DNA of 64,000 nt, from NCBI GenBank assembly GCA_903831805.1, contig CAIKZD010000009.1, positions 145,192 to 209,191 of the forward strand, written 5' to 3'. This DNA is from an uncultured bacterium. Its GTDB lineage: Bacteria > Patescibacteriota > Minisyncoccia > Moranbacterales > UBA2206. The notes under the pieces are model-generated. The model was not told the origin of the DNA, did not search any database, and saw only the letters and a list, made by a program, of their open reading frames with translations. A program made the position numbers and the translations under genes. Shown here one piece after another: positions 5,018 through 48,678 of this stretch (positions are counted from its first letter, which is position 1; every line of letters begins with the position of its first letter).

Positions 5018-6940
5018 ATGTTCCATAAGAAAAACACCCTTGTTTTTGCAGTTATTTCAATCGTCCTGGCTGCCAATCTGTCCTTTGCCTTGCCACGCAT
5101 CGCTAAATATTCCTCTGTGGACGAGCCCTATTGGACTTATGGCCGTATTGCCAAATTCTGGACCGCCGTCTCCCAACAAAACTGGAGAGGCACTAACATC
5201 AATGACAAGCCCGGCATCACCACTGCCATCCTGGCCGGCCCGGGCCTTTTGGCCATTGACCCGATGCCCTACAAATCACTCCGCGAACAAGTCAAAAGTC
5301 CAGCCACCATCGCCGCCATTCGAAAAATAAACTTTTCTTTCCGCCTGCCGATCTATCTCATGAGTTTGATCTTTTTCCTCTTGTTTTATGTTTTTTTGAA
5401 AAAACTTTTCGGCACCGCCATAGCGCTCTTGTCGCTCATCTTCATCGGACTTTCCCCCATCCTCATTGGCATTTCCCTCATTATCAACCCCGACTCACTC
5501 CTTTGGGGCTTTCTGCCGCTCGCCATCCTTGCCTATTTGATCCACCAGAAAGAATCGGCTGAAAACGAAAAAAGCGAAAAGATAAATTTTGCGGACACCC
5601 CGCCAGGAAAAATAATTTGGCGCATCATAAAAGAAAAGAAATATTTACTGATGGCCGGACTATTTTTAGGTCTGTCTATCCTGACCAAATATGTCGCTAA
5701 CATTTTATATGTCTATCTGCTCGGCCTACTTTTCCTGGAATATATCTACAATTTTCACGCTAAAAAAAATCCAGCCGCCTATCTCAAAAAGGCCATATTT
5801 GAATATCTAGCCGTCATAGTCGTGTCCATGCTCGTCTTCTTCCTGCTTTTTCCGGCTTGTTGGCATACGCCCAGCATGGTCCTGGGTGGCACCTTCCTCA
5901 GTCTGGCTTTCAAATCCACCTGGCCGCTTTTTGCCGGATTTCTCGGTTTGATTTTGGCCGATTTGCTACTTCTAAAAAGTTTTTTCGCAGAAGCCGTTCT
6001 GAATTTTTTAGCCAAACACAAAAATCTATTCAAAAAATTATTCAGCACCCTACTTCTCCTTGGCACGATTTTTGTTTTTGTAAATGTCTACAGAGGCATG
6101 CGATTCATAGATTTTGAAGCGACCGTGGCATCGCCCAAAGGTGGCAGCGGACTGGACCCGCTCAGATTTATCTCAGAACTTTCGGCCAATCTCTATGTCC
6201 TCATCTTCAGTCTCACGCCTTTGGTCTTTCTTTTTTTCCTTTGGGCCATTTTCGTCAACGCCTTCCGAAAAGCAGAACTTGCCACCAGAGAATCTACCGT
6301 CGTCTTGTATTTCTCTATTTTCATCGTGCTCTACTATATCGCTTCGGAAGTTAATCATGTCGTGGCCACCACGCGCTACCAGATTGTTATCTTCCCGATG
6401 GCAGGAATCATGGCCGCCATCGGCTTAAAACAATTCCTCTCGCAGTTTCCCTGGGGAAGCCTGACCTTGCCTACGCACCGTTACTGGACTTATGCGACGA
6501 CCATCCTGCTCTCCGTATTCAGCTTGTATCTCATCTCGCCCTTCTTCTTCAACTATGCCAGCCTACTCCTGCCGCAAAAATACGTCCTTAATCTTAAAGA
6601 CATGGGCGACGGCAGTTATGAAGCGGCGCAATTTCTCAACACTTTGCCGGATGCCAAAAACATCACCATTTGGTCAGATAAAGGCGCGGTATGTGAAACT
6701 TTTGCCGGCACTTGCAAAGTCAGTTTCAGCCGGAAAGACACGGAGGGCATTGCTTTTAAATATTTTGTCGTGTCCACCGGCCGAAAAAGTCGTTCCCTCA
6801 AAATGTCCTCCCCCTTCAACAGTTCAGTGGATTTCAAAAAATTATATTCCTCGGAAGAATCGGGAATTTTCCGCATCAACATTGGCGGACGAGCCAACGA
6901 CTTCGTCAAGGTGGTCCCGATTGAACACATAGCAAAATAA
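5018..6940 (+). CDS. GT-C polytopic membrane glycosyltransferase (GT39/PMT-like)
   Basis: 640 aa. Many TM helices. SVDEPYW acidic motif in the first external loop. Large C-terminal soluble domain. Confidence 0.5.
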   Translation: MFHKKNTLVFAVISIVLAANLSFALPRIAKYSSVDEPYWTYGRIAKFWTAVSQQNWRGTNINDKPGITTAILAGPGLLAIDPMPYKSLREQVKSPATIAAIRKINFSFRLPIYLMSLIFFLLFYVFLKKLFGTAIALLSLIFIGLSPILIGISLIINPDSLLWGFLPLAILAYLIHQKESAENEKSEKINFADTPPGKIIWRIIKEKKYLLMAGLFLGLSILTKYVANILYVYLLGLLFLEYIYNFHAKKNPAAYLKKAIFEYLAVIVVSMLVFFLLFPACWHTPSMVLGGTFLSLAFKSTWPLFAGFLGLILADLLLLKSFFAEAVLNFLAKHKNLFKKLFSTLLLLGTIFVFVNVYRGMRFIDFEATVASPKGGSGLDPLRFISELSANLYVLIFSLTPLVFLFFLWAIFVNAFRKAELATRESTVVLYFSIFIVLYYIASEVNHVVATTRYQIVIFPMAGIMAAIGLKQFLSQFPWGSLTLPTHRYWTYATTILLSVFSLYLISPFFFNYASLLLPQKYVLNLKDMGDGSYEAAQFLNTLPDAKNITIWSDKGAVCETFAGTCKVSFSRKDTEGIAFKYFVVSTGRKSRSLKMSSPFNSSVDFKKLYSSEESGIFRINIGGRANDFVKVVPIEHIAK

Positions 6941-9514: not shown

Positions 9515-10667
9515 ATAAAGCGTAATATTCTTTCGCTACATTTTGCCAGCTCAACTTGAGAGCGCGCACTCGACTGGCCTCCCCCATTTTTTCCCGCTTT
9601 TCCGGGGAATTGAGCAGTTTTTCAATTTTCGAAGCGATGTCAGTCGCATCTTTCATCTTTATAATATACCCATTCTCGCCGTCCGTCACTAATTCTTTAG
9701 TTCCGCCAGTATCTGTCGCTAAAATAGGAAGTCCGGATGACATTGCCTCAAGAACAGTATTGCTCATACCTTCATTGAGAGACGGCAGAACAAATATCTG
9801 CATACCGCCATAGAAAGCTGGCATCTCGCTATGGCTAAACGATCCTAAAAATTCCACATTGTCGTTGATACCAGATTCTTCAACCTGTCTCTCAAATTTT
9901 AGCCTTGCATTGCCGTCACCAATAATTTTTAATCGCACCTGAGGATATCTTTGCAGTAAAATCGCCGTGGCATCAATCAGATAATTTATCCCTTTCCGGT
10001 CAGTCAGACGAGAAGTGGAAACTATATTAAATTCTCCTTGGGACTCATTATTCTCTTGCGCATCATTAGGTTTGAATTTATCAGTATCAACCCCATTGTA
10101 AATCACCCCGATTTTTTGTTTCGGATTTGTTTTTAAGGCTAGTTCTTTCAGGCCAAGAGAATTGGAAATTACCGCTGCCGCTTGCCGCCAAATTAGTGAG
10201 AAAAGCGGCTTTAGCAAAGCATAAATCAAGGGCCAACGATCGGAATAGCCCGGCACATCCGAACCGCGCAGCGATACGATATAAGGAATCCCAAATTCCC
10301 ACTTGAGCAATATTGAAATGAAGCCACTCGGCAGGGTGAAAAAAGAATGGGACAGGGCATAAGGATGTTTTTCTTTTTGAGCGGTCTTGATCAAACGGCG
10401 CGAAAACCAATAGGCGCGCCAAGTATACATCAGGAGATCTTTGGTTGATTGCAAATGCAGATTGTTGGCATTTTTGCCGATGGGCAAGCGATGAATTTTC
10501 ACGTTCTCGCCAATTTTTTCCAAATGATATTTTTGGTCGACAGAAGAGGTCACCAAATCAACTTGGATATTTTCCATTTTGGCATATTCGCCCAAAATAT
10601 TAGCGGTAGCATTGGCCGCGCCGCCGCCGAGGGGCGGATATTCATAATTTAAAAAAAGAATGCGCAT
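9501..10667 (-). CDS. GT4 family (GT-B) glycosyltransferase
   Basis: EGMSNTVLEAMSSGLPILATDTGG motif. The track ORF starts at TTG 10712. ATG at 10667 gives the classic MRILFLNYEYPPLGGG N-terminus, 4 nt after the upstream stop. Confidence 0.8.
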   Translation of the reverse strand: MRILFLNYEYPPLGGGAANATANILGEYAKMENIQVDLVTSSVDQKYHLEKIGENVKIHRLPIGKNANNLHLQSTKDLLMYTWRAYWFSRRLIKTAQKEKHPYALSHSFFTLPSGFISILLKWEFGIPYIVSLRGSDVPGYSDRWPLIYALLKPLFSLIWRQAAAVISNSLGLKELALKTNPKQKIGVIYNGVDTDKFKPNDAQENNESQGEFNIVSTSRLTDRKGINYLIDATAILLQRYPQVRLKIIGDGNARLKFERQVEESGINDNVEFLGSFSHSEMPAFYGGMQIFVLPSLNEGMSNTVLEAMSSGLPILATDTGGTKELVTDGENGYIIKMKDATDIASKIEKLLNSPEKREKMGEASRVRALKLSWQNVAKEYYALYENI

Positions 10668-10671
10668 AAGC

Positions 10672-12021
10672 CTATTCAAGTTTATCTCCCCTGCCGATGG
10701 CATAATATTCAAAACCAGCTTCCTTCACCACATCCAGATCAAAAAGATTTCTGCCATCGAAGATAATAGGGTTAAGCATTAAGCCTTTGATTTTCTCAAA
10801 ATTAGGCGAGCGGTATTCTTTTGTTTCAGTGGCAATAATGAGAGCTGCACAGCCCTTCAGCATTCCATATTTATCATGCTCCTCATATGATATCCCCTTT
10901 CTTCCTTCAAGATAGATCTCCTTAGCTTCATTAATGGCCAGTGGGTCATAAGCGATAATCTCAGCTCCTTTCTTCAAAAGCTCATCAATAATAACAATGG
11001 AAGCTGATTCTCTCATATCATTAGTATTGGCCTTGAAAGCCAACCCCCAGATGGCGAACTTTTTTCCAGACAGATCTTCTCCGAATCTAGAGATGACCTT
11101 ATTTGAAATAACCGTCTTTTGATAATTATTCACTCCCTCGATAGCTTCCAGTAGATCAAGATAAGGTTGCGGAAGATTTATTTTCTTAGAAGAACTTATT
11201 AAGGCTTTAACATCTTTTGGGAAACAACTGCCACCATAGCCGCAACTGGCATGCAAGAAACTATTGCCGATTCTCGGATCACTACCCATGCCTTCCGCAA
11301 TCTGTTCGACGTCTGAACCCAAAAGTTCTGCAATAGCCGCCACTGTGTTTATATACGATATCTTCATGGCTAAATTAGTATTGGAACTATATTTAGTCAA
11401 CTCAGCTGCCCGCACGCCCATTCTATGAAAACGATCTTCTCTCATCATGAACGGCTTATACAATTTGTGCATTTTAGCCGCCACCTCGTCACTGTCCGTG
11501 CCCAAGACTATTCGACTAGGTTCCATCATATCTTTGACCGCCCGCCCCTCCGCCATAAATTCCGGATTGCTTATGACATGAAATTCAATCTGCTCTCCAC
11601 GCATATCCAATTCACTTTGGATCAAGGCCCTAACTTTTTCAGCGGTCCCGACCGGCACAGTCGATTTATCAGCCACAATGAGAGGGTGTGTCATCCGTCT
11701 TCCAATTTCATGCGCCACACTTTCCACATACCGCATATCGGCACTGCCATCGTCTCCGGGAGGAGTGCCTACGGCTATAAAAACAATTTCCGCTGAAAGA
11801 AGCGTGTCATCATAATCGGATGTAAAATGCAACAGATTTTGATCCATGCCTCTTTTGACCAGCGCTGCTAGTCCTGGCTCTTCTATTGGAAGAATCCCCT
11901 TTTTCAAATTTTCAATTTTTTTCATATCTACGTCAAGGCACCAAATCTCATTTCCCATATCAGCAAAAGCCGCCGCCAGTGGCAACCCGACAAAACCGAT
12001 CCCAACAACTCCAATTTTCAT
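10672..12021 (-). CDS. UDP-glucose/GDP-mannose dehydrogenase family enzyme, most likely UDP-glucose 6-dehydrogenase
   Basis: 449 aa. MKIGVVGIGFVGLPLA Rossmann N-terminus, GYGGSCFPKDV catalytic Cys motif, C-terminal UDP-binding domain. Confidence 0.8.
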   Translation of the reverse strand: MKIGVVGIGFVGLPLAAAFADMGNEIWCLDVDMKKIENLKKGILPIEEPGLAALVKRGMDQNLLHFTSDYDDTLLSAEIVFIAVGTPPGDDGSADMRYVESVAHEIGRRMTHPLIVADKSTVPVGTAEKVRALIQSELDMRGEQIEFHVISNPEFMAEGRAVKDMMEPSRIVLGTDSDEVAAKMHKLYKPFMMREDRFHRMGVRAAELTKYSSNTNLAMKISYINTVAAIAELLGSDVEQIAEGMGSDPRIGNSFLHASCGYGGSCFPKDVKALISSSKKINLPQPYLDLLEAIEGVNNYQKTVISNKVISRFGEDLSGKKFAIWGLAFKANTNDMRESASIVIIDELLKKGAEIIAYDPLAINEAKEIYLEGRKGISYEEHDKYGMLKGCAALIIATETKEYRSPNFEKIKGLMLNPIIFDGRNLFDLDVVKEAGFEYYAIGRGDKLE

Positions 12022-12039
12022 ATTAATAAAAGTGAATTA

Positions 12040-12978
12040 TTAGTGTGTCTCTATTTCTTTGATTGCATAATTCATCCGCCCCTGCTCTTTGTAATAGCCC
12101 CGGATAATAATGTCTGCTAAAAGGCCGAAGATGAAAAGGATGACGCCAATCATAATGAAGAAAACGCCAATGAGCGGCCAAATCTTATCCGCCAGCGAGG
12201 CCTTAAAGAATATTTTTTCCACCGCCATCCAAATGATGATAGCCAAGCCAATGAGCGACAGAACTACGCCGCTGCCACCAAAAAGATGGAGCGGGCGCGA
12301 AGAATATTTCCGCCAGAACCAAATGGAAATCATATCCACCATCCCTTTCATCCCCCGTTTCCAATTATATTTAGTCACGCCGTGCACGCGCGGAAAATGA
12401 TTGACTTTCACTTCGGAAACTTTATAGCCGTCAAACTGCAAAATGGCCGGCATAAAACGATGCATCTCGCCGAACAAATCCACGTCGCGGAAACATTCGC
12501 GTCGATAGGCTTTCAAGGAGCAACCGGAGTCATGGATGTTATCTTCAATCAAGATTTGGCGCACGAGGTTAGCCAGCCGCGAAGACAGTTTTTTCATGAA
12601 CGGATCTTTCCTCTCGGCTCGCCAACCGGCCACCACGTCAAAGCCTTCCGCCATTTTGGCCAGCAGTTTCCCGATATCACTCGGGTCATTTTGCAAATCA
12701 CCGTCCATCGTCACCACCATTTCGCCCGTAGCATTTTTTATCCCCGCGTCAAAACTGGCCGTCTGGCCATAATTCTTGCGAAAACGAATGAGTTTCAACG
12801 GCGCGAGACCCTCGCAATTCTTCACGGTCGCGTCCGTCGACCCGTCATCGATAAAGATAATTTCATATTTTTTTCCCAAAGCTTCGCAAGCATCTTTGAT
12901 GCGGCGATGCAATTCTTTGACATTCCCTTCTTCATTATAAAGTGGCACCACCACCGACAAGTCCATTTTTCCTTCCAT
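12040..12978 (-). CDS. GT2 polyprenyl-phosphate sugar synthase (GtrB/ArnC/Dpm1-like), second copy
   Basis: VVVPLYNEEGN...FIDDGSTD...MDGDLQNDP signature plus two C-terminal TM helices. Confidence 0.8.
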   Translation of the reverse strand: MEGKMDLSVVVPLYNEEGNVKELHRRIKDACEALGKKYEIIFIDDGSTDATVKNCEGLAPLKLIRFRKNYGQTASFDAGIKNATGEMVVTMDGDLQNDPSDIGKLLAKMAEGFDVVAGWRAERKDPFMKKLSSRLANLVRQILIEDNIHDSGCSLKAYRRECFRDVDLFGEMHRFMPAILQFDGYKVSEVKVNHFPRVHGVTKYNWKRGMKGMVDMISIWFWRKYSSRPLHLFGGSGVVLSLIGLAIIIWMAVEKIFFKASLADKIWPLIGVFFIMIGVILFIFGLLADIIIRGYYKEQGRMNYAIKEIETH

Positions 12979-40768: not shown

Positions 40769-42049
40769 TTAATGGATGGCCTTGAGATCTTTATTTGATG
40801 GATAGCAAAATGATCCCCTGTCCAACGAATAAAGTACGACAAAAATAATAAAGTATTGAAATCCAAATAAAAAAGCCAGCCCATTAATTCCAAATAAGGG
40901 CAACAATATAATCGTCAATATTATCTTTACAATAGGGCTAATTATTGATTCCCTGAAAAGAATATCTTTTTTATTCGAAAACAAAATTTGATTTTTGAAA
41001 ATCAATGCAAGAATAAAAAATGGATAAAATGCGATTGATATTTGCGATATATATATTGCAGAGATATATTTTTCTGAAAATAATAGGGGTAATATAAACT
41101 TGATTGCAACCAGACCAATAATAGCGATAGTAGCTCCTAAAAGAAATAAATATAAATAATGTTTTAGTGGCAAAGAGTTATATTTAACCTGTTTTGGAGC
41201 GAATATAGATAAGATTGATTTTGTATTATCCTGCAATTGCTTTGTCATAAGAATACCAATACTATATATCGCTAGAGATGTTGGGGATAATAAAATTCCG
41301 ATTAAAATTTTATCTATATTCCCCGAAATGAAACCTAGCACACTTAGTTTTGTCAAAAACCATCCGTATTTTATCGTATCCTTATCGCTTTTTTCATTTT
41401 CAACATATTGTAAACTCTTGTAGTAATAATACCCATTAAAAAAAGAAAATGATATTAAGTATATGGCAACAATTGCAACTAAATTATCCCTGTAAAAAAA
41501 TATAACCCCTATTGTAGCTATGGTGTTTATCAGTGATTGGATTGAGCTGTATTTTGCAGAAATATCAAATCTACTCTTGCCTTGTAAAAAGCTATCCCAA
41601 GTATTAGGCGCATAGAAAAAAGGAAAGAAAATTGAGGATAGCATAAACGCAATGCCCAGCGAATGATTCTGGAATGCATAATAATACATTCCAACGATTA
41701 AGAGTATTGGCACCCCCAGAAGACTCCATAAAAAACTAGCCCTGACCACTTTCTTATAATCACCGTCGTATCCCTTAGCCGCTGACTGAATGATGGACGT
41801 ATTCAGGCCTGGGATAGAAAGGATTGAAACAATCGAAAGAATGGACAGGATAAATTGATATTGCCCAAAAACTTCCTGCGTCGCAAGCCGCGCAAACGAC
41901 ACTGAAAGAGCCAGGCCACCCACTGTTCCAATTCCCTGACGAAACACCACCCAGAAGCCATTTTTGACGAAATACGGCAAATCTAGACCAATCTTATTGC
42001 CCCATTTTTTGGAAATTTGATAAATTTTTTCTTGGGTTCTTTTGATCAT
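40769..42049 (-). CDS. Wzx-type oligosaccharide flippase (MOP superfamily)
   Basis: 426 aa, 12-14 TM helices, polysaccharide-biosynthesis-protein layout. Confidence 0.65.
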   Translation of the reverse strand: MIKRTQEKIYQISKKWGNKIGLDLPYFVKNGFWVVFRQGIGTVGGLALSVSFARLATQEVFGQYQFILSILSIVSILSIPGLNTSIIQSAAKGYDGDYKKVVRASFLWSLLGVPILLIVGMYYYAFQNHSLGIAFMLSSIFFPFFYAPNTWDSFLQGKSRFDISAKYSSIQSLINTIATIGVIFFYRDNLVAIVAIYLISFSFFNGYYYYKSLQYVENEKSDKDTIKYGWFLTKLSVLGFISGNIDKILIGILLSPTSLAIYSIGILMTKQLQDNTKSILSIFAPKQVKYNSLPLKHYLYLFLLGATIAIIGLVAIKFILPLLFSEKYISAIYISQISIAFYPFFILALIFKNQILFSNKKDILFRESIISPIVKIILTIILLPLFGINGLAFLFGFQYFIIFVVLYSLDRGSFCYPSNKDLKAIH

Positions 42050-42140: not shown

Positions 42141-42334
42141 GGATTTCTATGGGAGGATTTTTTCGTTTTTCGCGCTTTTAGCCATTCTTTGCAACTATCA
42201 ACCACCCCGTCATTCTACCATTTTTCAATCCTATGTTCAAATACTTATCTCCTACCACTCTCTGCGATTACCTCCAAGCAAAAAAGCAACTCCCGAAGGA
42301 GTCGCCTAATCTTTGTTATGAGCGAAGGATAAGA

Positions 42335-42715
42335 TTAACAATTTTTGCAGGCTATCAGGGAATTTATATCAACCATTTCCGGCTTAATCCTCACATCTTC
42401 TTTTTTCGGAAGAGCCCGGTTGGCAGCGACTATTCTAAGCATTTTTTCTATATCATCATTAGTATTGATAAAGGATATTTCTTTTTTATTTCTCGCTTTC
42501 CTTAGAAAATCTTCCTTCATAACTAGAAGTGCGTGAGCAGCCGAACGAGAAACGAATTCTACTTTTTTAAAATCCAAATCAACCAGATTAGTTTTGGCAG
42601 TTGAAATAATCTTCTCCAAAGAATAGACCAAATCCCTTGATCCAATAATCGGAGCGATTTCTTTATATAAATTTATTGTGGCTTTTTTGATGTTTTCCAT
42701 ATATTTTTCTAACAT
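42335..42715 (-). CDS. STAS-like / DUF4325-like small protein
   Basis: 126 aa. The LDFKKVEFVSRSAAHALL block resembles the DUF4325 STAS-like signature. Sits 33 nt downstream of the GHKL ATPase gene. Confidence 0.45.
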   Translation of the reverse strand: MLEKYMENIKKATINLYKEIAPIIGSRDLVYSLEKIISTAKTNLVDLDFKKVEFVSRSAAHALLVMKEDFLRKARNKKEISFINTNDDIEKMLRIVAANRALPKKEDVRIKPEMVDINSLIACKNC

Positions 42716-42748
42716 ATCACTATACTATATTATAACTGAGAAGTCAAT

Positions 42749-43603
42749 TTATTCCAAATATCCATTTTTATAGATATCCACAGGCCCTGTTGGTTTTGGT
42801 ATCCTGTAGGCGATGATGACACCTTGCCAATAAAAATCTGGAAGTGTGAATAATTTCTCGCTTTTCCCGGAAGAAACAAGAGCGGCAGAGCCGGATAAAA
42901 AGATAAATTCACCATTCATAGCATTGCAGACCACATTTCTAGAGGTTCTCACGCCATATCCCCTTTCTTTACTTGCCTTAGTAGAATTCCCCTTCATAGA
43001 TCGCAAGATTGCTTCACTATCCGTAAGCATTAAACCACCCTCTTCTTTGTAGGTTTCAGCAAGTCCCCTTCCACAATCCACGATACAAATATCGAGATAA
43101 TCTTTACTAGGATAAAATTGTCCGAATAAATATCCCTTGTCTTGCAAACTGTGTTCAAATATATTAGTGACCAATTCACTGATTGGGTAAAGGATAGCAC
43201 TGCGCGTCCCAGGAACAGAACCCACTACTTTTAAAATTAAATTTGCAAAAAGAGATTCTAACCGCTCTCTATCTGGATTTTTCTCTTTTCTGAGAATACT
43301 GATTGGGATATAATTCTTTTTTAATTGAATTTCTTTTTGAAAGGAAAGTACAGAATCAATGCCTTCGGGGAATTTTACCGCATCCAAATATGACTTGACC
43401 GATCCAGCCGCGGTATAAGAACTTTTTGTAGAATTTATATACGCGCTTAATGGTAATATCAAAAACGGATAAGCCCAATCAATTTTTGACAAGTTGAAAT
43501 TAAGTTTTTTGCTTTCTCCCTGATCCTTCAGCGCCAAATATAGAGAAACTAATTGTCCTTGTAAAAAGCTATTTTTTGGTTTTAAAACAGTAACCTCTTT
43601 CAT
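42749..43603 (-). CDS. GHKL-family ATPase (histidine-kinase-like ATPase domain) with an unknown N-terminal ~130-aa domain
   Basis: 284 aa. N-box ELVTNIFEHS, G1 box DCGRGL, G2-like GYGVRTS. No HisKA/DHp domain. Confidence 0.6.
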   Translation of the reverse strand: MKEVTVLKPKNSFLQGQLVSLYLALKDQGESKKLNFNLSKIDWAYPFLILPLSAYINSTKSSYTAAGSVKSYLDAVKFPEGIDSVLSFQKEIQLKKNYIPISILRKEKNPDRERLESLFANLILKVVGSVPGTRSAILYPISELVTNIFEHSLQDKGYLFGQFYPSKDYLDICIVDCGRGLAETYKEEGGLMLTDSEAILRSMKGNSTKASKERGYGVRTSRNVVCNAMNGEFIFLSGSAALVSSGKSEKLFTLPDFYWQGVIIAYRIPKPTGPVDIYKNGYLE

Positions 43604-43639
43604 TTTTTTGTATTCATTGTTTATAACTTAACAATATAA

Positions 43640-43720
43640 ATATCACTTTCTCACCAAATACCCCTCCCGGCCTTCTCTCATACCACTTTCGGAGACTTTC
43701 AATGCTTTTTGGATTTCCAT
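43640..43720 (-). pseudogene. second relic of a galE 3' end (...GNPKSIESLRKWYERRPGG...)
   Basis: Core 43661-43706 nearly identical to the galE 3' coding sequence. Frame is disrupted. Confidence 0.6.
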
Positions 43721-43764
43721 TGGATATTTTTTTCGCTTCTTCGATCCGTTGAAACTATCCCCGC

Positions 43765-45156
43765 TTATTTCTGAATTATTTTCCAATACCCGCCTTTATC
43801 TGGACCAACTCGTTCAATCAATCTTTTTTCTTTCAATTTTCGCAGATTGTTTTCAACATTTTTCTCAGCCATATCTATCTGATGAGCAATTTCAACAATT
43901 GATATTTTTTCATCCCCCCTTATTAAAGAAATGATTTTATTTTGATTCTCTGTCACCTTTTCACCCACCTTTTCACCCACCTTTTCACCCACCTTTTCAC
44001 CCACCTTTTCACCCACCTTTTCACCCACCTTTTCACCCACCTTTTCTTGTTCCCTTTTCTTAAAAGAAATCACAAAAGCGCCTGCTTTTTCAGAAAATTC
44101 AGGTAACTTATTGCCATTTTTTTTGCATTCCTCAACTATTCGCTGAAAACCAGTTCCCCAGCTTTCCACCAAGTTAACTTGATGGAAAATTTCCACCAGT
44201 TTTTTATTTCTCGGAATAGAACGGTTTTCTGAAAAAATACTTTTTATATCAATCTCTTTCGGCAAAACCCCCGGACTCCAAATCTCTAGAGAGTTATCGA
44301 ATATCCTGATTTGAATATTTCCCGAATCATTATAATCTCGGTGAATCAATGCGTTAATGACCGCCTCTCGCAGTGCCAAGAGAGGATAGTCCCAAATTTC
44401 ATCCCGCTCCGGCTTTCCTGTAATAACAAATTCCGTGTTGATATGCCTCTTGATAAAATTCATTGCTTGATCTACGCAATGAATAATACTTCCGTCGAAT
44501 TCTTTTTCATCCAAAAATTTAACCACACTTTGACCTTTAAATCTGGCTGCTTTTACGATAGCCTGGTAGATATCAGTATTGTTTTTCACAAAGCAAAGAT
44601 ATCCGGCGTTTGTAATTTTATTTTTAGATATCAACCCAAGCTTTTTTAAAAAATCGATTTCGGAGCTAATTCTAAATTTATAGTATTTATTGTTTATTTT
44701 TTTAATAAGATCAGCGTCAAATTCTATTTTTTTAATTTCTTTTTCTAGATACATTTTATCAAAATCAGACAAGGCATATCTCTTTATAAGCTCTCGCACT
44801 TCAGTTTGAGACATTTTTTGATTAGTTTTTCCAACTCTAATATACGCCCTTTCAAAGGCAAAGACCGGCTTATTATCTGATTCTGAAACTTCAATTTCCA
44901 CAATTTCGCCAAGGCCGAAGGTTTTCACGTTTATGGAAGGATATAATATTGGATCAGTATTGTTTTTTATTTTATTTGCAAAGTCTTCTATCGTACTTTT
45001 TCCAACTTGCAGCCCAGTTGCAACCCCGCCATCATCCATCCCAACAATAACCTTGCCGCCTTTTTTGTTGGCAAAAGCGCAAAGAGAAATTATCGCCTCT
45101 TTCCATTCGGAGAACGAAGATTTTAATTCGATTTTTTCAGATTCTTTTAATTGCAT
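43765..45156 (-). CDS. COG2865-type Schlafen-like ATPase / putative transcriptional regulator (AlbA_2-like N-domain, HATPase_c_4-like core, C-terminal wHTH)
   Basis: 463 aa. A C-terminal wHTH follows an (EKVG)x7 linker. Confidence 0.6.
   Translation of the reverse strand: MQLKESEKIELKSSFSEWKEAIISLCAFANKKGGKVIVGMDDGGVATGLQVGKSTIEDFANKIKNNTDPILYPSINVKTFGLGEIVEIEVSESDNKPVFAFERAYIRVGKTNQKMSQTEVRELIKRYALSDFDKMYLEKEIKKIEFDADLIKKINNKYYKFRISSEIDFLKKLGLISKNKITNAGYLCFVKNNTDIYQAIVKAARFKGQSVVKFLDEKEFDGSIIHCVDQAMNFIKRHINTEFVITGKPERDEIWDYPLLALREAVINALIHRDYNDSGNIQIRIFDNSLEIWSPGVLPKEIDIKSIFSENRSIPRNKKLVEIFHQVNLVESWGTGFQRIVEECKKNGNKLPEFSEKAGAFVISFKKREQEKVGEKVGEKVGEKVGEKVGEKVGEKVGEKVTENQNKIISLIRGDEKISIVEIAHQIDMAEKNVENNLRKLKEKRLIERVGPDKGGYWKIIQK
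43954..44046. repeat. in-frame 12-nt tandem repeat (ttttcacccacc x ~7.5) encoding (EKVG)n
   Basis: Perfect tandem copies seen directly. They lie inside CDS 43765..45156, between the ATPase core and the HTH. Confidence 0.85.
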
Positions 45157-45195
45157 ATTTGATATTGTTTTTTAACTATGGCAGATTCGCCATAA

Positions 45196-46074
45196 TTAAA
45201 TTTTGACATTTAATTTATTTAGTGCCACATTCACATTCGTCAATTTATTGAAATCCTTCCACTCAATCAAAGCAGTCCTTGAGATGATTTCTTCAATTTC
45301 CTCGTACTTCAAATGATAATTAGAGCCGATATCATACCTAGGAACAGTCAGTGAAGAAAATTCTTTGATAAAATAAAGCACGTTGTCACTTCCATACAAA
45401 AACAAATATGATTTTATTGGTTTTATGTTATTAATCACGCTAAAACCAAGAATAAATTTGGAATTTATTTCTCGCCCTCCTGATGATCCGCTGCCACCTT
45501 TTCGAAAAACTTTCTTGCCATTTTCCTCCCAAACAAAAATATTGTCATACGGATTTCTCCAATCCACATGATTTAACGACTGGGGCAAATTATAATATCT
45601 ATACCGCTTAACTTCTATCCGTGGCGCAAACAGCTTGTCGTGATTTTTATATTTTTTCAGTATTTTTTCTTTATACCGAGGTTCTAATTCATTTTTGATA
45701 ATATAATCATCAATTTCTTTTTTCATTTTTTCCTTCTTCCATACAAGTCTGTATTTATCAAGCCACTTTGCATATAATTCATTGCCGGCGCGATTATCAA
45801 ATTCGACAAAAAAATACTCATACAAAAGTTCTCTATAGAGAGCTTGCTTTGGCAATTGAGTTTTCTCTACATATTTTTTATTATTCCAAAATTTAGAATT
45901 AAGATTATCAATAATAATGGTTACGGTATAAGGATTTTTACTCTGTAATTTTTTGGCAATCTCCTTGTGAGTAGAAAAAGAATCGTGATAATAATCGTCC
46001 ACTGCCAAAATCTCAGCATCATATTCCTGAGTTAAATTAAATTTATCAATTTTAATAATTTCATTCGTTGACAT
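45196..46074 (-). CDS. hypothetical protein (defence-island resident, no motif recognised)
   Basis: The track ORF starts at TTG 46110. The first ATG, at 46072-46074, gives a 292-aa protein. It lies 39 nt downstream of the COG2865 gene. Confidence 0.4.
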   Translation of the reverse strand: MSTNEIIKIDKFNLTQEYDAEILAVDDYYHDSFSTHKEIAKKLQSKNPYTVTIIIDNLNSKFWNNKKYVEKTQLPKQALYRELLYEYFFVEFDNRAGNELYAKWLDKYRLVWKKEKMKKEIDDYIIKNELEPRYKEKILKKYKNHDKLFAPRIEVKRYRYYNLPQSLNHVDWRNPYDNIFVWEENGKKVFRKGGSGSSGGREINSKFILGFSVINNIKPIKSYLFLYGSDNVLYFIKEFSSLTVPRYDIGSNYHLKYEEIEEIISRTALIEWKDFNKLTNVNVALNKLNVKI

Positions 46075-46099
46075 ATAAGCATTATAGCTTATTTCTTGA

Positions 46100-46169
46100 C
46101 TATTTCCCAATATCCGCCTTTGTCGGGGGCCGACTTTTTTCAGATTCTTTTATCTGTATATTTGATATC
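46100..46169 (-). pseudogene. collapsed relic of a second COG2865 gene: 5' end (..IQIKESEK) fused directly to 3' end (..GPxxGGYWK..*)
   Basis: 46139-46166 matches 45138-45165 (the start of CDS 43765..45156). 46100-46134 matches 43768-43806 (its 3' end). Everything between has been deleted. Confidence 0.55.
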
Positions 46170-46173
46170 TTAC

Positions 46174-46965
46174 CTAGTTTTCAAAACTCTTCAAATACTC
46201 CGGTAATTTCAAGATCCACTCGGCCTGCTGCGGATAGAAAAGAAATCTTTCCACATCTTTGGCAGCTTGCTTCAAGTCACTTTTCCGGACTTGCGCCTGC
46301 AGGAAATCAATCAGCTCTTGCCGATTGATGATGGCAATTTTTTTCTCTTTAAAAATTTCATAATTCGGCTCAATATTTTTCTGACTCAGGAACCAAACCA
46401 AGTCGTAGAAGTCGCGGCCCTTTTGGTAGGGGCGAAAAATAATGGCCAAGATTTTCTGGGCGAAAAGTGTTTCCAGAGTATTGGAGATGATATTAAAACT
46501 CTTACCGTACGCAAAAATTTGCCTTGCTTCATAACGGATGCTCTTATATGGCGTCGGGTCAATTTCAAATTTAATTTTCAATTTTTGATTCGAAAAATCA
46601 GTCAATGCCATTTCTCTCATAACCTCCGAAAATTTTACATTGATAATGATAATATTTTCCGTTTTTTTAACAGTTGTGTCGGTTGGAAATCCCAATTCTC
46701 TCAGTTTCTTTCCGATAAATCCGGCTAATTCTTCGTAATCCAGCCCGTCTTGGATCAAATCGAAATCCAAATCTTCGGAAAATCTTTCGATTTTATGGAT
46801 AAAACGCAAGCAAGTTCCGCCTAAAAATGACACGTACGGCCCAAACTTAGAATTGAAAACCACGGCTAAAATTTCCGTTTGCAAATATTCGGTCAAAATG
46901 CGCCGCGGAATATTTGGAATACTATTTCTTTTGACGTAATCTTCCAAGAAAAACTTATCTAACAT
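46174..46965 (-). CDS. abiEii: AbiEii/AbiGii-family nucleotidyltransferase toxin (DUF1814)
   Basis: FLGGTCLRF...ERFSEDLDFDL signature of AbiEii nucleotidyltransferases. Confidence 0.65.
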   Translation of the reverse strand: MLDKFFLEDYVKRNSIPNIPRRILTEYLQTEILAVVFNSKFGPYVSFLGGTCLRFIHKIERFSEDLDFDLIQDGLDYEELAGFIGKKLRELGFPTDTTVKKTENIIIINVKFSEVMREMALTDFSNQKLKIKFEIDPTPYKSIRYEARQIFAYGKSFNIISNTLETLFAQKILAIIFRPYQKGRDFYDLVWFLSQKNIEPNYEIFKEKKIAIINRQELIDFLQAQVRKSDLKQAAKDVERFLFYPQQAEWILKLPEYLKSFEN

Positions 46966-47575
46966 TTTTTTGATAGTTTAAAACACTTTCGATTAATTTG
47001 TTGACTTTTCTATTGTTGAGCAGGTTTTTGTATAAGTCCAATTTTTTCTTTTTAAATTTAAACTCCTCATCAATTCTCATTTCTTTCCAAAAATCGATAT
47101 CATCTTTAATTTTGTTCTTATTCAGATAGATATAATCAATAAGTGCTTTTTCAGGAGTGGCAATATTAAAGGAAACATTTTTTTCCATCCGAGCTTCATA
47201 TCCGGTGAAAAATTCAGGCTTAATTTTTTGATATGTAAAATTTCCGAAGGGATTCTTGAAATACTTCGTAGTTTTTGAAGTCACTGAGGTATAAGTTCCG
47301 GGGATATCAGGGATAATCCCATAATAATTCAATGCGAATTCCAAGCTCAAATATGATGGCTCGTAAATTTTTTCTGCAAAAACTTTTGGATCAAGTTCAC
47401 TTTTTACTTTGGCAAGAATATACAAACCATCTTTTATCTTATTTAAGTAGCCTTTTTTCAACCAAAATGAAATCTGAACCATAATATTTTTTTGATCAAA
47501 AAAAATACTTTTTACCTCGGAAGCGGTAAAAACTGGATAATTTTTAACTTTTTCTTCAAAGTCGTAAAATTGCAT
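46955..47575 (-). CDS. abiEi: AbiEi-like antitoxin / transcriptional regulator (type IV TA)
   Basis: 206 aa. 11-nt overlap with the abiEii start. N-terminal wHTH-like region. Size and context fit AbiEi. Confidence 0.55.
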   Translation of the reverse strand: MQFYDFEEKVKNYPVFTASEVKSIFFDQKNIMVQISFWLKKGYLNKIKDGLYILAKVKSELDPKVFAEKIYEPSYLSLEFALNYYGIIPDIPGTYTSVTSKTTKYFKNPFGNFTYQKIKPEFFTGYEARMEKNVSFNIATPEKALIDYIYLNKNKIKDDIDFWKEMRIDEEFKFKKKKLDLYKNLLNNRKVNKLIESVLNYQKNVR

Positions 47576-47664
47576 ATATAAGCCTATTGTTAACTATGTA
47601 CGTTTATGTGTATTATTATATATCATAACTAAAAGAAACGCAAGCCATTTAATCTATGCCCGCT

Positions 47665-48678
47665 TCATTTCCTATATCCCTCCGGTCTCCTCTCATACCA
47701 CTTCCGAAGACTCTCAATGCTATCGCGCAAAGTTTTCTTAGCTTTCCATCGGAGAACTCTTTGGGCTTTTTTCGGATTGGCGAAAATCTCGGCGTATTCG
47801 CCTTTGCGGGCCGGAGCTTTTTGTTTTTTCATTTTTATCCCAAAAACTTTTTCCACTTCGCTCACGATCTCTTTCACCGAAAATCCGCGGCCGTTGCCCA
47901 AATTGAGAATCTGATTTTGACCGCCATGTTTCAAATAATCCAGAGCGAAAAAATGTGCTTCGACCAGATCTTCCACGTCGATGTAATCACGAATAGGCGT
48001 CTTGTCAGGCGTTTTGACGGTGGGACAAGTGTAGAAAAACGGTTCAATGTTCATGGCGCCACGCACGGCATTTTGCATAAGCAGCAAAGACGGTTTTTTG
48101 CTGTCGCCAATTGTGCCGTCGCTGGCCGCGCCGCAAACATTAAAATAGCGTAGGATGACATATTTAAAATTATGCAGTTCGCCATACCATTTGAGCATCC
48201 TTTCCACTAACATTTTTGATTCGCCGTAAGGATTGGCCGGATCTTGCGGATGCAATTCGTCCACCGGCAAATATTTGGTTTCGCCGTAAGTGGCGCAGGT
48301 GGAAGAAAAAATGATTTTTTTGACATTGGCTTTTCGCATCGCTTCCAAAAGGTTGAAACTGCCCAAAACATTATTTTCAAAATATAGTTCCGGTTGTTCC
48401 ATCGATTCATTAACGGAACACAAGGCGGCAAAATGCAAGACCGCCTCAATTTCATATTTGGCAAAAACTTTTTCAATGTCTGATTTTTTCCGCAAATCAC
48501 CTTTCACAAATTCCAGCGGCCCAAGTTTTTGCAAAATTTCCAAAACTTCGCGATAGCCATGCAAAAGATTATCAAAAACCACTACCTTAAATCCTCTTTC
48601 TAAAAAAAGTTTCACGGCGTGGCTGCCGATATAGCCCGCCCCACCGGTGACTAAAATCGTTGGCTTTTTATTTGGCAT
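47665..48678 (-). CDS. galE: UDP-glucose 4-epimerase
   Basis: 337 aa. ILVTGGAGYIGSH, YxxxK, full-length GalE architecture. Confidence 0.85.
   Translation of the reverse strand: MPNKKPTILVTGGAGYIGSHAVKLFLERGFKVVVFDNLLHGYREVLEILQKLGPLEFVKGDLRKKSDIEKVFAKYEIEAVLHFAALCSVNESMEQPELYFENNVLGSFNLLEAMRKANVKKIIFSSTCATYGETKYLPVDELHPQDPANPYGESKMLVERMLKWYGELHNFKYVILRYFNVCGAASDGTIGDSKKPSLLLMQNAVRGAMNIEPFFYTCPTVKTPDKTPIRDYIDVEDLVEAHFFALDYLKHGGQNQILNLGNGRGFSVKEIVSEVEKVFGIKMKKQKAPARKGEYAEIFANPKKAQRVLRWKAKKTLRDSIESLRKWYERRPEGYRK

Follow-up and report, generated by a model that had tools for sequence, protein, structure and literature searches.

A conserved kinase and STAS-protein gene pair of Patescibacteria, a remote relative of the CapKS and VapKSC switches

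The gene pair and its transcription unit

The window, i.e. the whole stretch of 64,000 nucleotides that was analysed, carries on its minus strand two adjacent genes, here called K and S, together with a conserved upstream region and a downstream hairpin:

43604..43664, minus strand: conserved leader/promoter region 5' of K, where nucleotide similarity to relatives begins
42749..43603, minus strand: K gene, encoding a STAS-like and GHKL serine kinase protein of 284 residues, a remote VapK/CapK homologue
[quoted passage not shown]
42274..42307, minus strand: terminator-like hairpin with T tract (10-bp stem, 5 G-C pairs), 28 nt past the S stop

Both ORFs could be verified at these lengths and with a spacing of 33 nt. 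More than 100 homologues were found for each of the two proteins, at 45–94% identity, and neither ORF can therefore be a chance occurrence. The homologues of the small protein begin at the second methionine of the S ORF (MENIKK...), so that ATG 42700 is probably the true start of S and the gap between K and S would be 48 nt. An earlier reading of this DNA, made from the letters alone (the sequence-only reading), had placed a STAS-like ORF of 126 residues 33 nt downstream of K; the ORF, the spacing and the STAS fold have stood, and the start is the part that probably needs amending.

Nucleotide conservation with a 94% relative spans window positions 43664 to 42280 and so runs into the hairpin after S. 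In a promoter scan of the region 5' of K, consensus sites were no commoner than expected by chance. S directly follows K in 68 of the 70 species loci; the gap has a median of 27 nt, and both exceptions are contig ends. When 1,892 flanking ORFs were clustered all against all and inspected for tight coupling, no conserved third gene emerged. The two genes make up a bicistronic transcription unit of their own, closed by the terminator-like hairpin, and the description of the pair as a self-contained cassette of an RsbW/RsbV-like kinase and a STAS protein was borne out. In the clustering of flanking ORFs, cluster 2 corresponds to the antisense ORF of S.

Domain structure of K and S, and their relation to CapKS and VapKSC

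The following features were delineated within the two genes:

43289..43603, minus strand: N-terminal STAS-like domain of K (residues 1–105), presumed sensor, with the order beta-alpha-beta-alpha-beta-alpha-alpha-beta
43475..43477, minus strand: codon of W43 of K (W-x-x-P46), placed opposite F54 of VapK (F-L-R-P57) in the alignment with the VapK family
42794..43207, minus strand: GHKL ATP-binding/kinase domain of K (residues 133–270)
42542..42550, minus strand: S56-R57-S58 of S, candidate phospho-acceptor at the N-terminus of STAS helix alpha2, invariant in 58 sequences

K is a GHKL serine kinase with the fold of SpoIIAB and RsbW, its closest structural matches, and it combines complete ATP-binding motifs with a degenerate N-terminal STAS-like domain. 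The sequence motifs are an N box (ELVTNIFEHS), a G1 box (DCGRG) and a lid/G2 region (GNSTK..KERGYGVRTS). In 40 homologues the N, G1 and G2 boxes are invariant (E143/N147/H151, D176xG178xG180 and G215xG217, respectively), and a DHp/HisKA domain is absent from K, both as the sequence-only reading had it. Also invariant in the K family is K167, which aligns with K239 of CapK. The Pfam profile HATPase_c stays below threshold on the window K alone (E=1e-3) and matches 31 of the 40 family members; HATPase_c_2 matches 21 of the 40.

The N-terminal 105–130 residues or so of K, previously taken for a novel domain of about 130 residues, are in fact a degenerate form of the STAS-like sensor domain of CapK/VapK kinases, homologous to the STAS domain of VapK. 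There is no conserved serine at the STAS phospho-site position of this domain. Residue W43 is more than 90% conserved, is located three residues ahead of a conserved proline, and aligns with the VapK phenylalanine.

S is composed of a STAS domain and a tail of about 25 residues only, with no wHTH or other DNA-binding domain. It matches Pfam STAS/STAS_2, by which the earlier STAS-like call was upheld, and structurally resembles RsbV, RsbS and SpoIIAA. S adopts a genuine STAS fold, and the site that commonly accepts the phosphate in such proteins is occupied by an invariant Ser-Arg-Ser, within the motif F-x-S-R-S-A-A-H; according to DSSP, helix alpha2 starts at residue 57. S56 is found opposite the phosphoserine S48 of VapS in the hhalign alignment, and S58 opposite S54 of CapS in an ungapped register, the register varying with the reference such that S56, R57 or S58 comes to stand opposite the known phosphoserine. 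In CapS and VapS, too, an absolutely conserved Ser/Thr (S54 and S48, respectively) stands where STAS helix alpha2 begins.

Pfam DUF4325 (PF14213) proteins also occur in pairs with 'ATP-binding proteins', but the window S and most CPR members are STAS/STAS_2 proteins instead. The window S has no DUF4325 match at E<=0.1, and five of the 34 S family members match at E<=0.01. The gathering threshold is passed by two distant S relatives, from the Bacteroidales locus L079 and ORFC of psiM100, and gp42 of phage BF1-TP2 carries DUF4325 in its record but remained below the Pfam threshold here. A literature search on DUF4325 returned nothing informative. A LAGLIDADG_WhiA match on S (E=2e-4, under the cut-off) was discarded as spurious, as it occurs in only two of 34 members and the fold is that of STAS.

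PADLOC-DB v2 contains no system model for either protein, K giving only a weak DrmA match (E=7e-5, 18 bits) and S none, and nothing useful was obtained from NCBIfam for K or S. JGI labels the K and S homologues as anti-sigma and anti-anti-sigma factors.

The CapKS and VapKSC systems (Chambers et al., EMBO J 2026, PMC13373217) have shown that rewiring can turn a kinase of the anti-sigma type and its STAS substrate into an ssDNA sensor that switches on immune operons or a toxin. VapKSC consists of the kinase VapK, the STAS antitoxin VapS and the PIN toxin VapC, and VapK is the ssDNA-sensing STAS-GHKL kinase of these systems (PMC13373217). CapK has an HTH-STAS-GHKL architecture, is activated by ssDNA and phosphorylates S54 of CapS, a STAS-wHTH repressor over CBASS, Bub and other immune operons; in VapKSC, the phosphomimetic S48E change in VapS frees VapC (PMC13373217). 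A conserved aromatic residue in the STAS domain of the kinase (CapK W68, VapK F54) is required for ssDNA activation. VapK F54A loses phage protection, F54 being predicted to stack on ssDNA, and CapK K239 is a predicted DNA-contacting lysine (PMC13373217). Both systems target adjacent genes, and in both the kinase is a sensor and not a toxin, the effector being separate (PMC13373217).

Alignment of K with the VapK family by hhalign gave a probability of 97.0% (E=1e-10) over 251 columns, residues 2–267 of K against 8–279, albeit at an identity of only about 21%. The probability was 92.9% against a single VapK sequence and 72.6% against CapK, and when VapK and CapK were compared by BLASTP with 4,693 ORFs, the K genes were the sole matches. 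On these profile alignments, K is a full-length remote homologue of VapK. The S family reached a probability of 6% against the VapS family and below 1% against CapS, and S shares no detectable homology with VapS or CapS beyond the STAS motif LDFxxV. BLAST searches with VapC, VapS and CapS gave no match in any K-S locus, and a VapC homologue was found in none of 86 (85 loci and the window) or, in another count, in none of 68 loci, whereas VapS and VapC follow VapK in all 61 VapK loci with room downstream.

The likeness to VapKSC thus comprises a kinase of about 290 residues with STAS-like and GHKL domains and no HTH, an aromatic residue ahead of a conserved proline, and a STAS protein of about 120 residues with a short C-terminal tail encoded directly 3' of the kinase, together with strong conservation over distant lineages and a moderate association with defence genes. 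It differs in that the K-S family lacks VapC or any conserved third gene, that S has Ser-Arg-Ser where VapS has A-S-P, and that K-S occurs mainly in Patescibacteria, its distant branches being found in Bacteroidales and further relatives on mobile elements of archaea. With CapK/CapS the pair shares the STAS-GHKL core, the N box and the next strand including the lysine opposite CapK K239, the order of kinase and then STAS protein, and a position beside immune or TA genes. However, K has no N-terminal HTH and S no wHTH, so that a function as transcriptional repressor cannot be inferred, and there is no conserved downstream operon.

By sequence relationship, K-S belongs with the DNA-damage-sensing switches CapK/CapS and VapK/VapS as an effector-less and remote relative, and is not a new type of system. 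Of the earlier proposal of a novel defence or partner-switching system, the two-gene unit is real, but its type was already published in 2026 as CapKS and VapKSC. The K-S locus represents a third, separate branch, in which sensor and substrate occur without a linked output.

Distribution and genomic neighbourhood

Clustering at 50% identity divides the K-S branch into 236 representative clusters, mainly in Patescibacteria, including lineages with recoded UGA, with distant relatives in Bacteroidales. K-S identity across CPR classes amounts to 55–60%, a high conservation that would also fit housekeeping regulation. The distribution is sporadic, as only 76 pattern matches were found among 185,579 species genomes. 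For this reason, and because distant relatives are found on mobile elements, the idea that K-S might be a core housekeeping gene of CPR bacteria was set aside.

These distant relatives are encoded by Bacteroides phage BF1-TP2, by an inserted fragment of the archaeal prophage psiM100 and by a plasmid of the haloarchaeon Halobaculum, and retain both the SRS and the (W/F)xxP motifs. One relative is a fusion to a DEAD/ResIII helicase. Scanning of the IMG/VR viral contigs with the CPR-family patterns revealed no relative. The psiM100 insert has, besides the pair, a third gene, ORFD; a PIN domain guessed for its product from the N-terminal ILVDTNILI was not supported by Pfam (E<=0.01) or by a PDB sequence search.

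In the window, the neighbours of the pair are a protein with Schlafen/AlbA_2, HATPase_c_4 and wHTH domains, AbiEii and AbiEi, and they are bracketed by direct repeats:

43667..43706, no strand assigned: direct-repeat copy 1, a remnant of the 3' end of an epimerase gene, right border of the insertion of about 4 kb
47682..47721, no strand assigned: direct-repeat copy 2, within the 3' end of the epimerase gene (47665–48678), left border

Between the repeats lie the Schlafen gene, a gene for a 304-residue protein, AbiEii and AbiEi, about 4 kb in all, with K-S just outside. In close relatives this place is taken by other cargo (Fic, or a different allele of AbiE), K-S itself remaining 80–90% identical at the nucleotide level; AbiE alleles share only about 30% identity at a K identity of 85%. 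The locus is thus a clean example of a stable module beside a cargo hot spot.

AbiEi-AbiEii is located upstream on the same strand in six out of 47 CPR loci, these six representing three lineages or more. Among the immediate neighbours (148 genes), AbiEi, AbiEii, SoFic and PDC-S04 occur three times each, against none in 148 control genes 5–10 kb away, and Gabija adjoins the non-CPR relatives in two loci. Housekeeping genes flank most K-S loci, and about three quarters have no recognisable TA or defence neighbour. The association of K-S with defence islands is real but moderate. In the sequence-only reading the pair lay in a defence-type island beside AbiE and Schlafen; these neighbours are correct and the enrichment is moderate, but the pair is outside the separate, repeat-bracketed insertion. 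K-S behaves as conserved accessory cargo bordering hot spots of TA and defence genes, with distant relatives on phages and a plasmid.

Proposed function and alternatives

We lean towards the view that K-S works on its own as a switch of the CapK/VapK type, made up of a kinase and its substrate. The signal would be a nucleic acid, most likely ssDNA from DNA damage or phage replication, which would bind K in the groove between its STAS-like and kinase domains, including W43 and K167. The bound kinase would become active and phosphorylate S at S56 or S58, and this may alter the binding partners of S. In this proposal, both ssDNA activation and phosphorylation are transferred from homologues that are only about 21% identical. 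Because VapC is missing and S carries no DNA-binding domain, the output would have to run through a partner of S whose gene lies at another site, or through the variable cargo next door, for instance AbiE; otherwise the pair would be a bare signalling node. It is plausible that K-S serves as a sensing switch in connection with phage or stress conflict. If the mechanism transfers, K-S would be a portable sensor of damage or infection, and would join the small number of candidate signalling modules known from CPR bacteria.

The classical comparison is with SpoIIAB/SpoIIAA and RsbW/RsbV, the best structural matches for K and S, where a GHKL serine kinase likewise acts on a STAS substrate. A switch of this type, with K sequestering a remotely encoded sigma factor that is released by unphosphorylated S, could be a housekeeping control of stress or growth in the reduced genomes of CPR bacteria, similar to the Rsb system of Chlamydia, and would agree with the HATPase_c_2 matches of K, the STAS/STAS_2 matches of S, the JGI labels, the high identity across CPR classes and the many housekeeping neighbourhoods. 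We nevertheless consider it quite improbable. Searches of the K and S family profiles against all PDB chains gave no relevant match at E<=1, SpoIIAB, RsbW, SpoIIAA and RsbV included, whereas the match of K to the VapK family extends over the whole protein; hhalign comparison of S with SpoIIAA and RsbV was likewise not significant, these two reference sequences serving for the motif register only. K has an additional N-terminal STAS-like domain, which RsbW and SpoIIAB are not known to have, and the canonical D-S-(S/T)-G phospho-acceptor is replaced by SRS in S. The cognate sigma factor of RsbW/RsbV and SpoIIAB/SpoIIAA is usually encoded in the same operon, yet in the 246 flanking genes of 66 loci no recurrent sigma factor or PP2C phosphatase was found, and no PP2C phosphatase was found among the seven window neighbours scanned. 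As the sequence-only reading had remarked, the window pair has no adjacent sigma factor, response regulator or phosphatase, and the flanking-gene survey placed the homologues away from sigma-B-type regulons. Relatives also occur in archaea, on a prophage insert and a plasmid, and on a phage; archaea are not known to have sigma factors. The sporadic distribution argues in the same direction. A search of the literature on partner switching in Patescibacteria returned nothing.

The neighbourhood itself raises two further alternatives. K-S might be a cis-acting sensor and regulator of adjacent TA or defence cargo, here AbiE, with S restraining the toxin or its expression until K is active, in the manner in which VapS restrains VapC. 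The same-strand AbiE genes upstream, the occurrence of AbiE, SoFic and PDC-S04 in immediate but not in distal positions, the Gabija neighbours, the third gene ORFD in the psiM100 insert and the adjacent targets of CapKS and VapKSC are all consistent with this. It seems unlikely, however, as some three quarters of the loci have no such neighbour, the AbiE block of the window was inserted separately, between direct repeats of its own, and S has no domain for binding DNA. Moreover, the cargo varies among close relatives and AbiE diverges while K-S is conserved, which argues against a co-evolving protein interface. Alternatively, the pair might be a self-contained TA or abortive-infection system, K being toxic because it phosphorylates essential proteins of the host or drains ATP, with S as its antidote or decoy substrate. 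The strict two-gene composition, the relatives on phages, prophage insert and plasmid, and the site beside TA and defence cargo would fit, but we give this little credence: the two relatives that have been characterised use the kinase for sensing and have a separate effector, no features of a kinase toxin were found in K, and a presumed toxin gene in first position, together with high conservation, is untypical of TA pairs. Nothing was found in support of the earlier suggestion of an ATPase toxin with a STAS antidote.

Next to the stand-alone switch of the CapK/VapK type, we tentatively consider a further reading, possible though on balance doubtful, in which K-S is a minimal, effector-less alarm for nucleic acids or DNA damage, conserved in the ultra-small Patescibacteria, and S acts in trans, in either its phosphorylated or its unphosphorylated form, on a conserved host target. 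Candidate targets are RNA polymerase, the ribosome and unlinked toxins. The invariant S-R-D / S-R-S / H polar patch of S would then be a new STAS interaction or ligand site, and the pair would provide a global stress or phage response for symbionts with reduced genomes, which may lack a classical SOS system.

The K-S transcription unit and its products

The two minus-strand ORFs described in the sequence-only reading were recovered unchanged, and are followed by a hairpin:

42749-43603, minus strand: K, kinase gene, ORF of 284 residues
42335-42715, minus strand: S, STAS gene, ORF of 126 residues, 33 nt from K
28 nt past the S stop codon: terminator-like hairpin (10-bp stem and T tract)

S homologues start at the second Met of the window ORF (leaving 121 residues), which makes the ATG at 42700 the probable true start of S, with a K-S gap of 48 nt. 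Nucleotide similarity to the closest relatives sets in about 55 nt upstream of K and ends just beyond the hairpin; these boundaries and the hairpin after S therefore identify K-S as a discrete bicistronic unit, with predicted transcription-unit signals of its own. When 1,892 flanking ORFs were clustered, nothing recurred except K (in 68 loci) and S (in 65), and the closely following ORFs found in 18 of 60 loci all fell in different clusters, hence there is no shared third gene. The suggestion that the pair forms its own cassette thus holds.

Window K matches Pfam HATPase_c under the gathering score (E=1e-3). Across the K family the call holds, with matches to this profile in 31 of 40 members and to the SpoIIAB/RsbW-type HATPase_c_2 in 21 of 40. 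The histidine-kinase-like ATPase boxes noticed in the sequence are invariant in the K family alignment: the N box (E143..N147..H151), the G1 box (D176xG178xG180) and the lid/G2 region (G205-S207-K209...R214-G215-x-G217). The AlphaFold2 model is confident (pLDDT 87.7, pTM 0.89), and the architecture, fold and ATP-binding motifs of K are firmly established. Window S matches STAS under the gathering score (E=6.8e-3) and does not match DUF4325 in Pfam. In its family STAS is found in 31 of 34 members, STAS_2 in 20 and DUF4325 in five, so the STAS-like assignment is supported; the DUF4325-like label fits some relatives, with no hit for the window protein. Invariant in the S family are S26-R27-D28, LDF..V.F followed by S56-R57-S58-A-A-H61, and M92.R.VAANR; the AlphaFold2 model is again confident (pLDDT 86). 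K and S each have more than 100 homologues (45-94% identity), which come almost exclusively from Patescibacteria/CPR metagenome-assembled genomes. Searches of PADLOC and NCBIfam identified neither of the window proteins.

Comparison with VapKSC and CapKS

In the CapKS system, ssDNA activates the HTH-STAS-GHKL kinase CapK, which phosphorylates S54 of the STAS-wHTH repressor CapS, leading to de-repression of adjacent immune operons (Chambers et al., EMBO J 2026, PMC13373217). VapK shares the STAS-GHKL core but lacks the HTH, and phage protection is abolished by each of VapK F54A, VapS S48A and VapC D28A (PMC13373217). Reference protein sequences were taken from the Appendix of that paper, and VapK numbering from its AlphaFold file.

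With hhalign, the K family matches VapK alone across the GHKL domain (92.9%, E=3.8e-7), sharing the distinctive stretch N.FEHSKS..G.F..GQ.F..KN.L...VD.G.G. Against a 30-member VapK family alignment the match covers the full length (97.0%, E=1e-10, 251 columns, residues 2-267 versus 8-279), including the STAS-like domain. By alignment K is a full-length homologue of VapK, and its N-terminal domain, at first considered novel, proves to be already known. The match to CapK is weaker (72.6%). The VapK family alignment pairs the near-invariant W43 of K (W-x-x-P46) with the essential VapK Phe (F54-L-R-P57), and the CapK alignment pairs the invariant K167 with CapK K239, a predicted ssDNA contact; judged from these alignments, K conserves two residues that line the groove predicted to hold ssDNA in its homologues. 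S has no kinship to VapS or CapS detectable by hhalign apart from an LDFxxV motif. The invariant Ser-Arg-Ser is nevertheless placed by alignment at the STAS phospho-site: S56 lies opposite VapS S48 (hhalign), and in ungapped register S58 lies opposite CapS S54 and R57 opposite SpoIIAA S58 (SpoIIAA used only to check the motif register). Because these registers differ, either of the two invariant serines, S56 or S58, is the candidate phospho-acceptor.

Of 80 VapK loci from metagenomes, 61 extend far enough downstream to be judged, and every one of these has both VapS and VapC, whereas no VapC homologue was found in 85 K-S loci or the window; unlike CapS, S has no DNA-binding domain. Lacking VapC, a recurring third gene and a DNA-binding domain in S, K-S is therefore an orphan two-gene branch, a sensor kinase with its substrate but without linked output, and represents a remote, effector-less branch of the system type published in 2026 (PMC13373217). 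We propose that a nucleic-acid signal, probably ssDNA, is detected by K, which would phosphorylate S at S56 or S58 and may thereby alter partner binding by S.

Distribution and mobile relatives

Scanning one genome from each of 185,579 species with sequence patterns turned up 70 loci, some 46 in Patescibacteria (36-94% identity) and some 24 in Bacteroidales, Alistipes, Clostridia or Anaerolineae (roughly 30% identity). S directly follows K in 68 of these, both exceptions being contig ends, and the pairing is obligatory. When 1.84 billion representative proteins were searched exhaustively with an HMM, 236 clusters passed E<=1e-30. Almost all of them are 270-310 residues long and matched over their full length; fusions are rare (two). 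In protein P0298 (1266 residues) the K module is fused to an N-terminal DEAD/Helicase_C/ResIII helicase, and in P0306 (527 residues) it has an unassigned 233-residue N-terminal extension. In two CPR loci K is broken under code 11 and intact only with UGA as sense (code 25/4); these contigs probably belong to Gracilibacteria or Absconditabacteria, despite the labels Saccharibacteria (L057) and Patescibacteria group (L059) in their records.

L057, about 10000-10860: UGA-recoded K ORF, 289 residues
L059, about 10000-10860: UGA-recoded K ORF, 286 residues

Distant K-S relatives are carried by phages, a prophage insert and a plasmid, and keep F-x-SRS-x-A-(H/D) in S and (W/F)-x-x-P in K:

Bacteroides phage BF1-TP2: gp43 (K) and gp42 (S, annotated DUF4325)
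"Inserted fragment IFa" of Methanothermobacter prophage psiM100: ORFB (K) and ORFC (S)
Halobaculum plasmid NZ_CP119990 (L168): S gene unannotated

IFa (L167 3619-6411) comprises these two homologues and a 492-residue ORFD (5066-6544), which could be a linked effector. Its start is PIN-like (MKILVDTNILIYRED), but a PIN assignment was rejected as Pfam and PDB sequence searches were negative. On the plasmid, the ORF straight after the K homologue (about 5800-6100) encodes an S-type protein (...IDLINVEFVSRSVADEL...) absent from the RefSeq annotation. One CPR contig with K-S (L001/L002) has a second, different pair at 11194-12226, a 245-residue MerR-type HTH protein (weak K-profile match, E=2e-6) followed directly by a 97-residue DUF4325 protein, which is possibly CapK/CapS-like or related in some other way.

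Neighbourhoods and the adjacent Schlafen-AbiE block

K-S neighbourhoods are variable and often housekeeping (DnaG/RpoD, RNase Y/HU, CysS/DnaX, CTP synthase/RecJ, IF3/L35/L20), with at most three occurrences of any Pfam family among the 148 genes immediately flanking CPR pairs. AbiEi, AbiEii, SoFic and PDC-S04 are each seen three times in this set, and never in a control set of 148 genes from the same loci but 5-10 kb distant. Six of 47 CPR loci, spread over at least three lineages, have AbiEi-AbiEii upstream of K-S on the same strand; restriction enzymes, MzaA and reverse transcriptase are further immediate neighbours, and Gabija adjoins two non-CPR relatives. The association with defence-type genes is suggestive only, because the counts are small and phylogenetically non-independent. 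Polysaccharide-synthesis genes adjoin K-S in close relatives and some Bacteroidales loci.

A classical partner switch acting on a sigma factor is improbable, as neither a sigma factor nor a PP2C phosphatase recurs among the genes immediately flanking the CPR pairs. The earlier idea of a kinase/STAS switch repurposed away from such control agrees with this and with the conflict-system associations, but a system of this type is already in the literature (2026). Control of adjacent cargo in cis by K-S, with the variable neighbours just described, is rather unlikely, and K as toxin with S as antidote, the other option raised from sequence, is slightly more so. The reading of K-S as an effector-less sensor-substrate pair is preferred.

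In the window, K-S adjoins a block of about 4.0 kb with a Schlafen-like gene, a 304-residue ORF, AbiEii and AbiEi:

43707-47681: Schlafen-AbiE block
43667-43706 and 47682-47721: imperfect direct repeats (88% over 40 nt, alignable to about 75 nt)
43765-45156: Schlafen-like gene
45196-46110, minus strand: 304-residue ORF, between the Schlafen-like gene and AbiEii
46135-46168: 5' start remnant of a second Schlafen-like gene, ATG mutated to ATA
46087-46127: 3'-end remnant of the same, encoding PDKGGYWEIVKK and a stop

The repeats are the duplicated 3' end of an epimerase gene (47665-48678), the signature of a discrete insertion. K-S lies just outside, so its placement in a defence island by AbiE and Schlafen stands as adjacency but not as membership of the repeat-bracketed block. 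In the closest relative (94% protein identity) Fic occupies the position of the block, and in Moranbacteria relatives K is 85% identical while the AbiE alleles are only about 30% identical; K-S is therefore a stable element beside a slot that turns over.

The 304-residue ORF has no Pfam, PADLOC or NCBIfam match, and none of the loci compared holds a homologue. Within the Schlafen-like gene, about nine copies of a perfect 12-nt tandem repeat (43930-44070) encode (GEKV)n, which separates the HATPase_c_4 domain from the C-terminal wHTH and could be a length-variable linker. The second Schlafen-like gene survives only as a "ghost" (46087-46168), of which the same 3'-end remnant (27-46 nt) is found at gene-cassette borders near K-S in Moranbacteria relatives (L018 9792-9818, 11399-11443 and 12353-12394; L017 11411-11462), a pattern suggestive of recurrent recombination among paralogous genes that encode a wHTH. 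The G+C content is low from about 24000 to 48000 (0.28-0.37, versus about 0.43 in the flanks), and this region carries a long polysaccharide/glycosyltransferase cluster that ends at a flippase gene (40769-42049) beside K-S.
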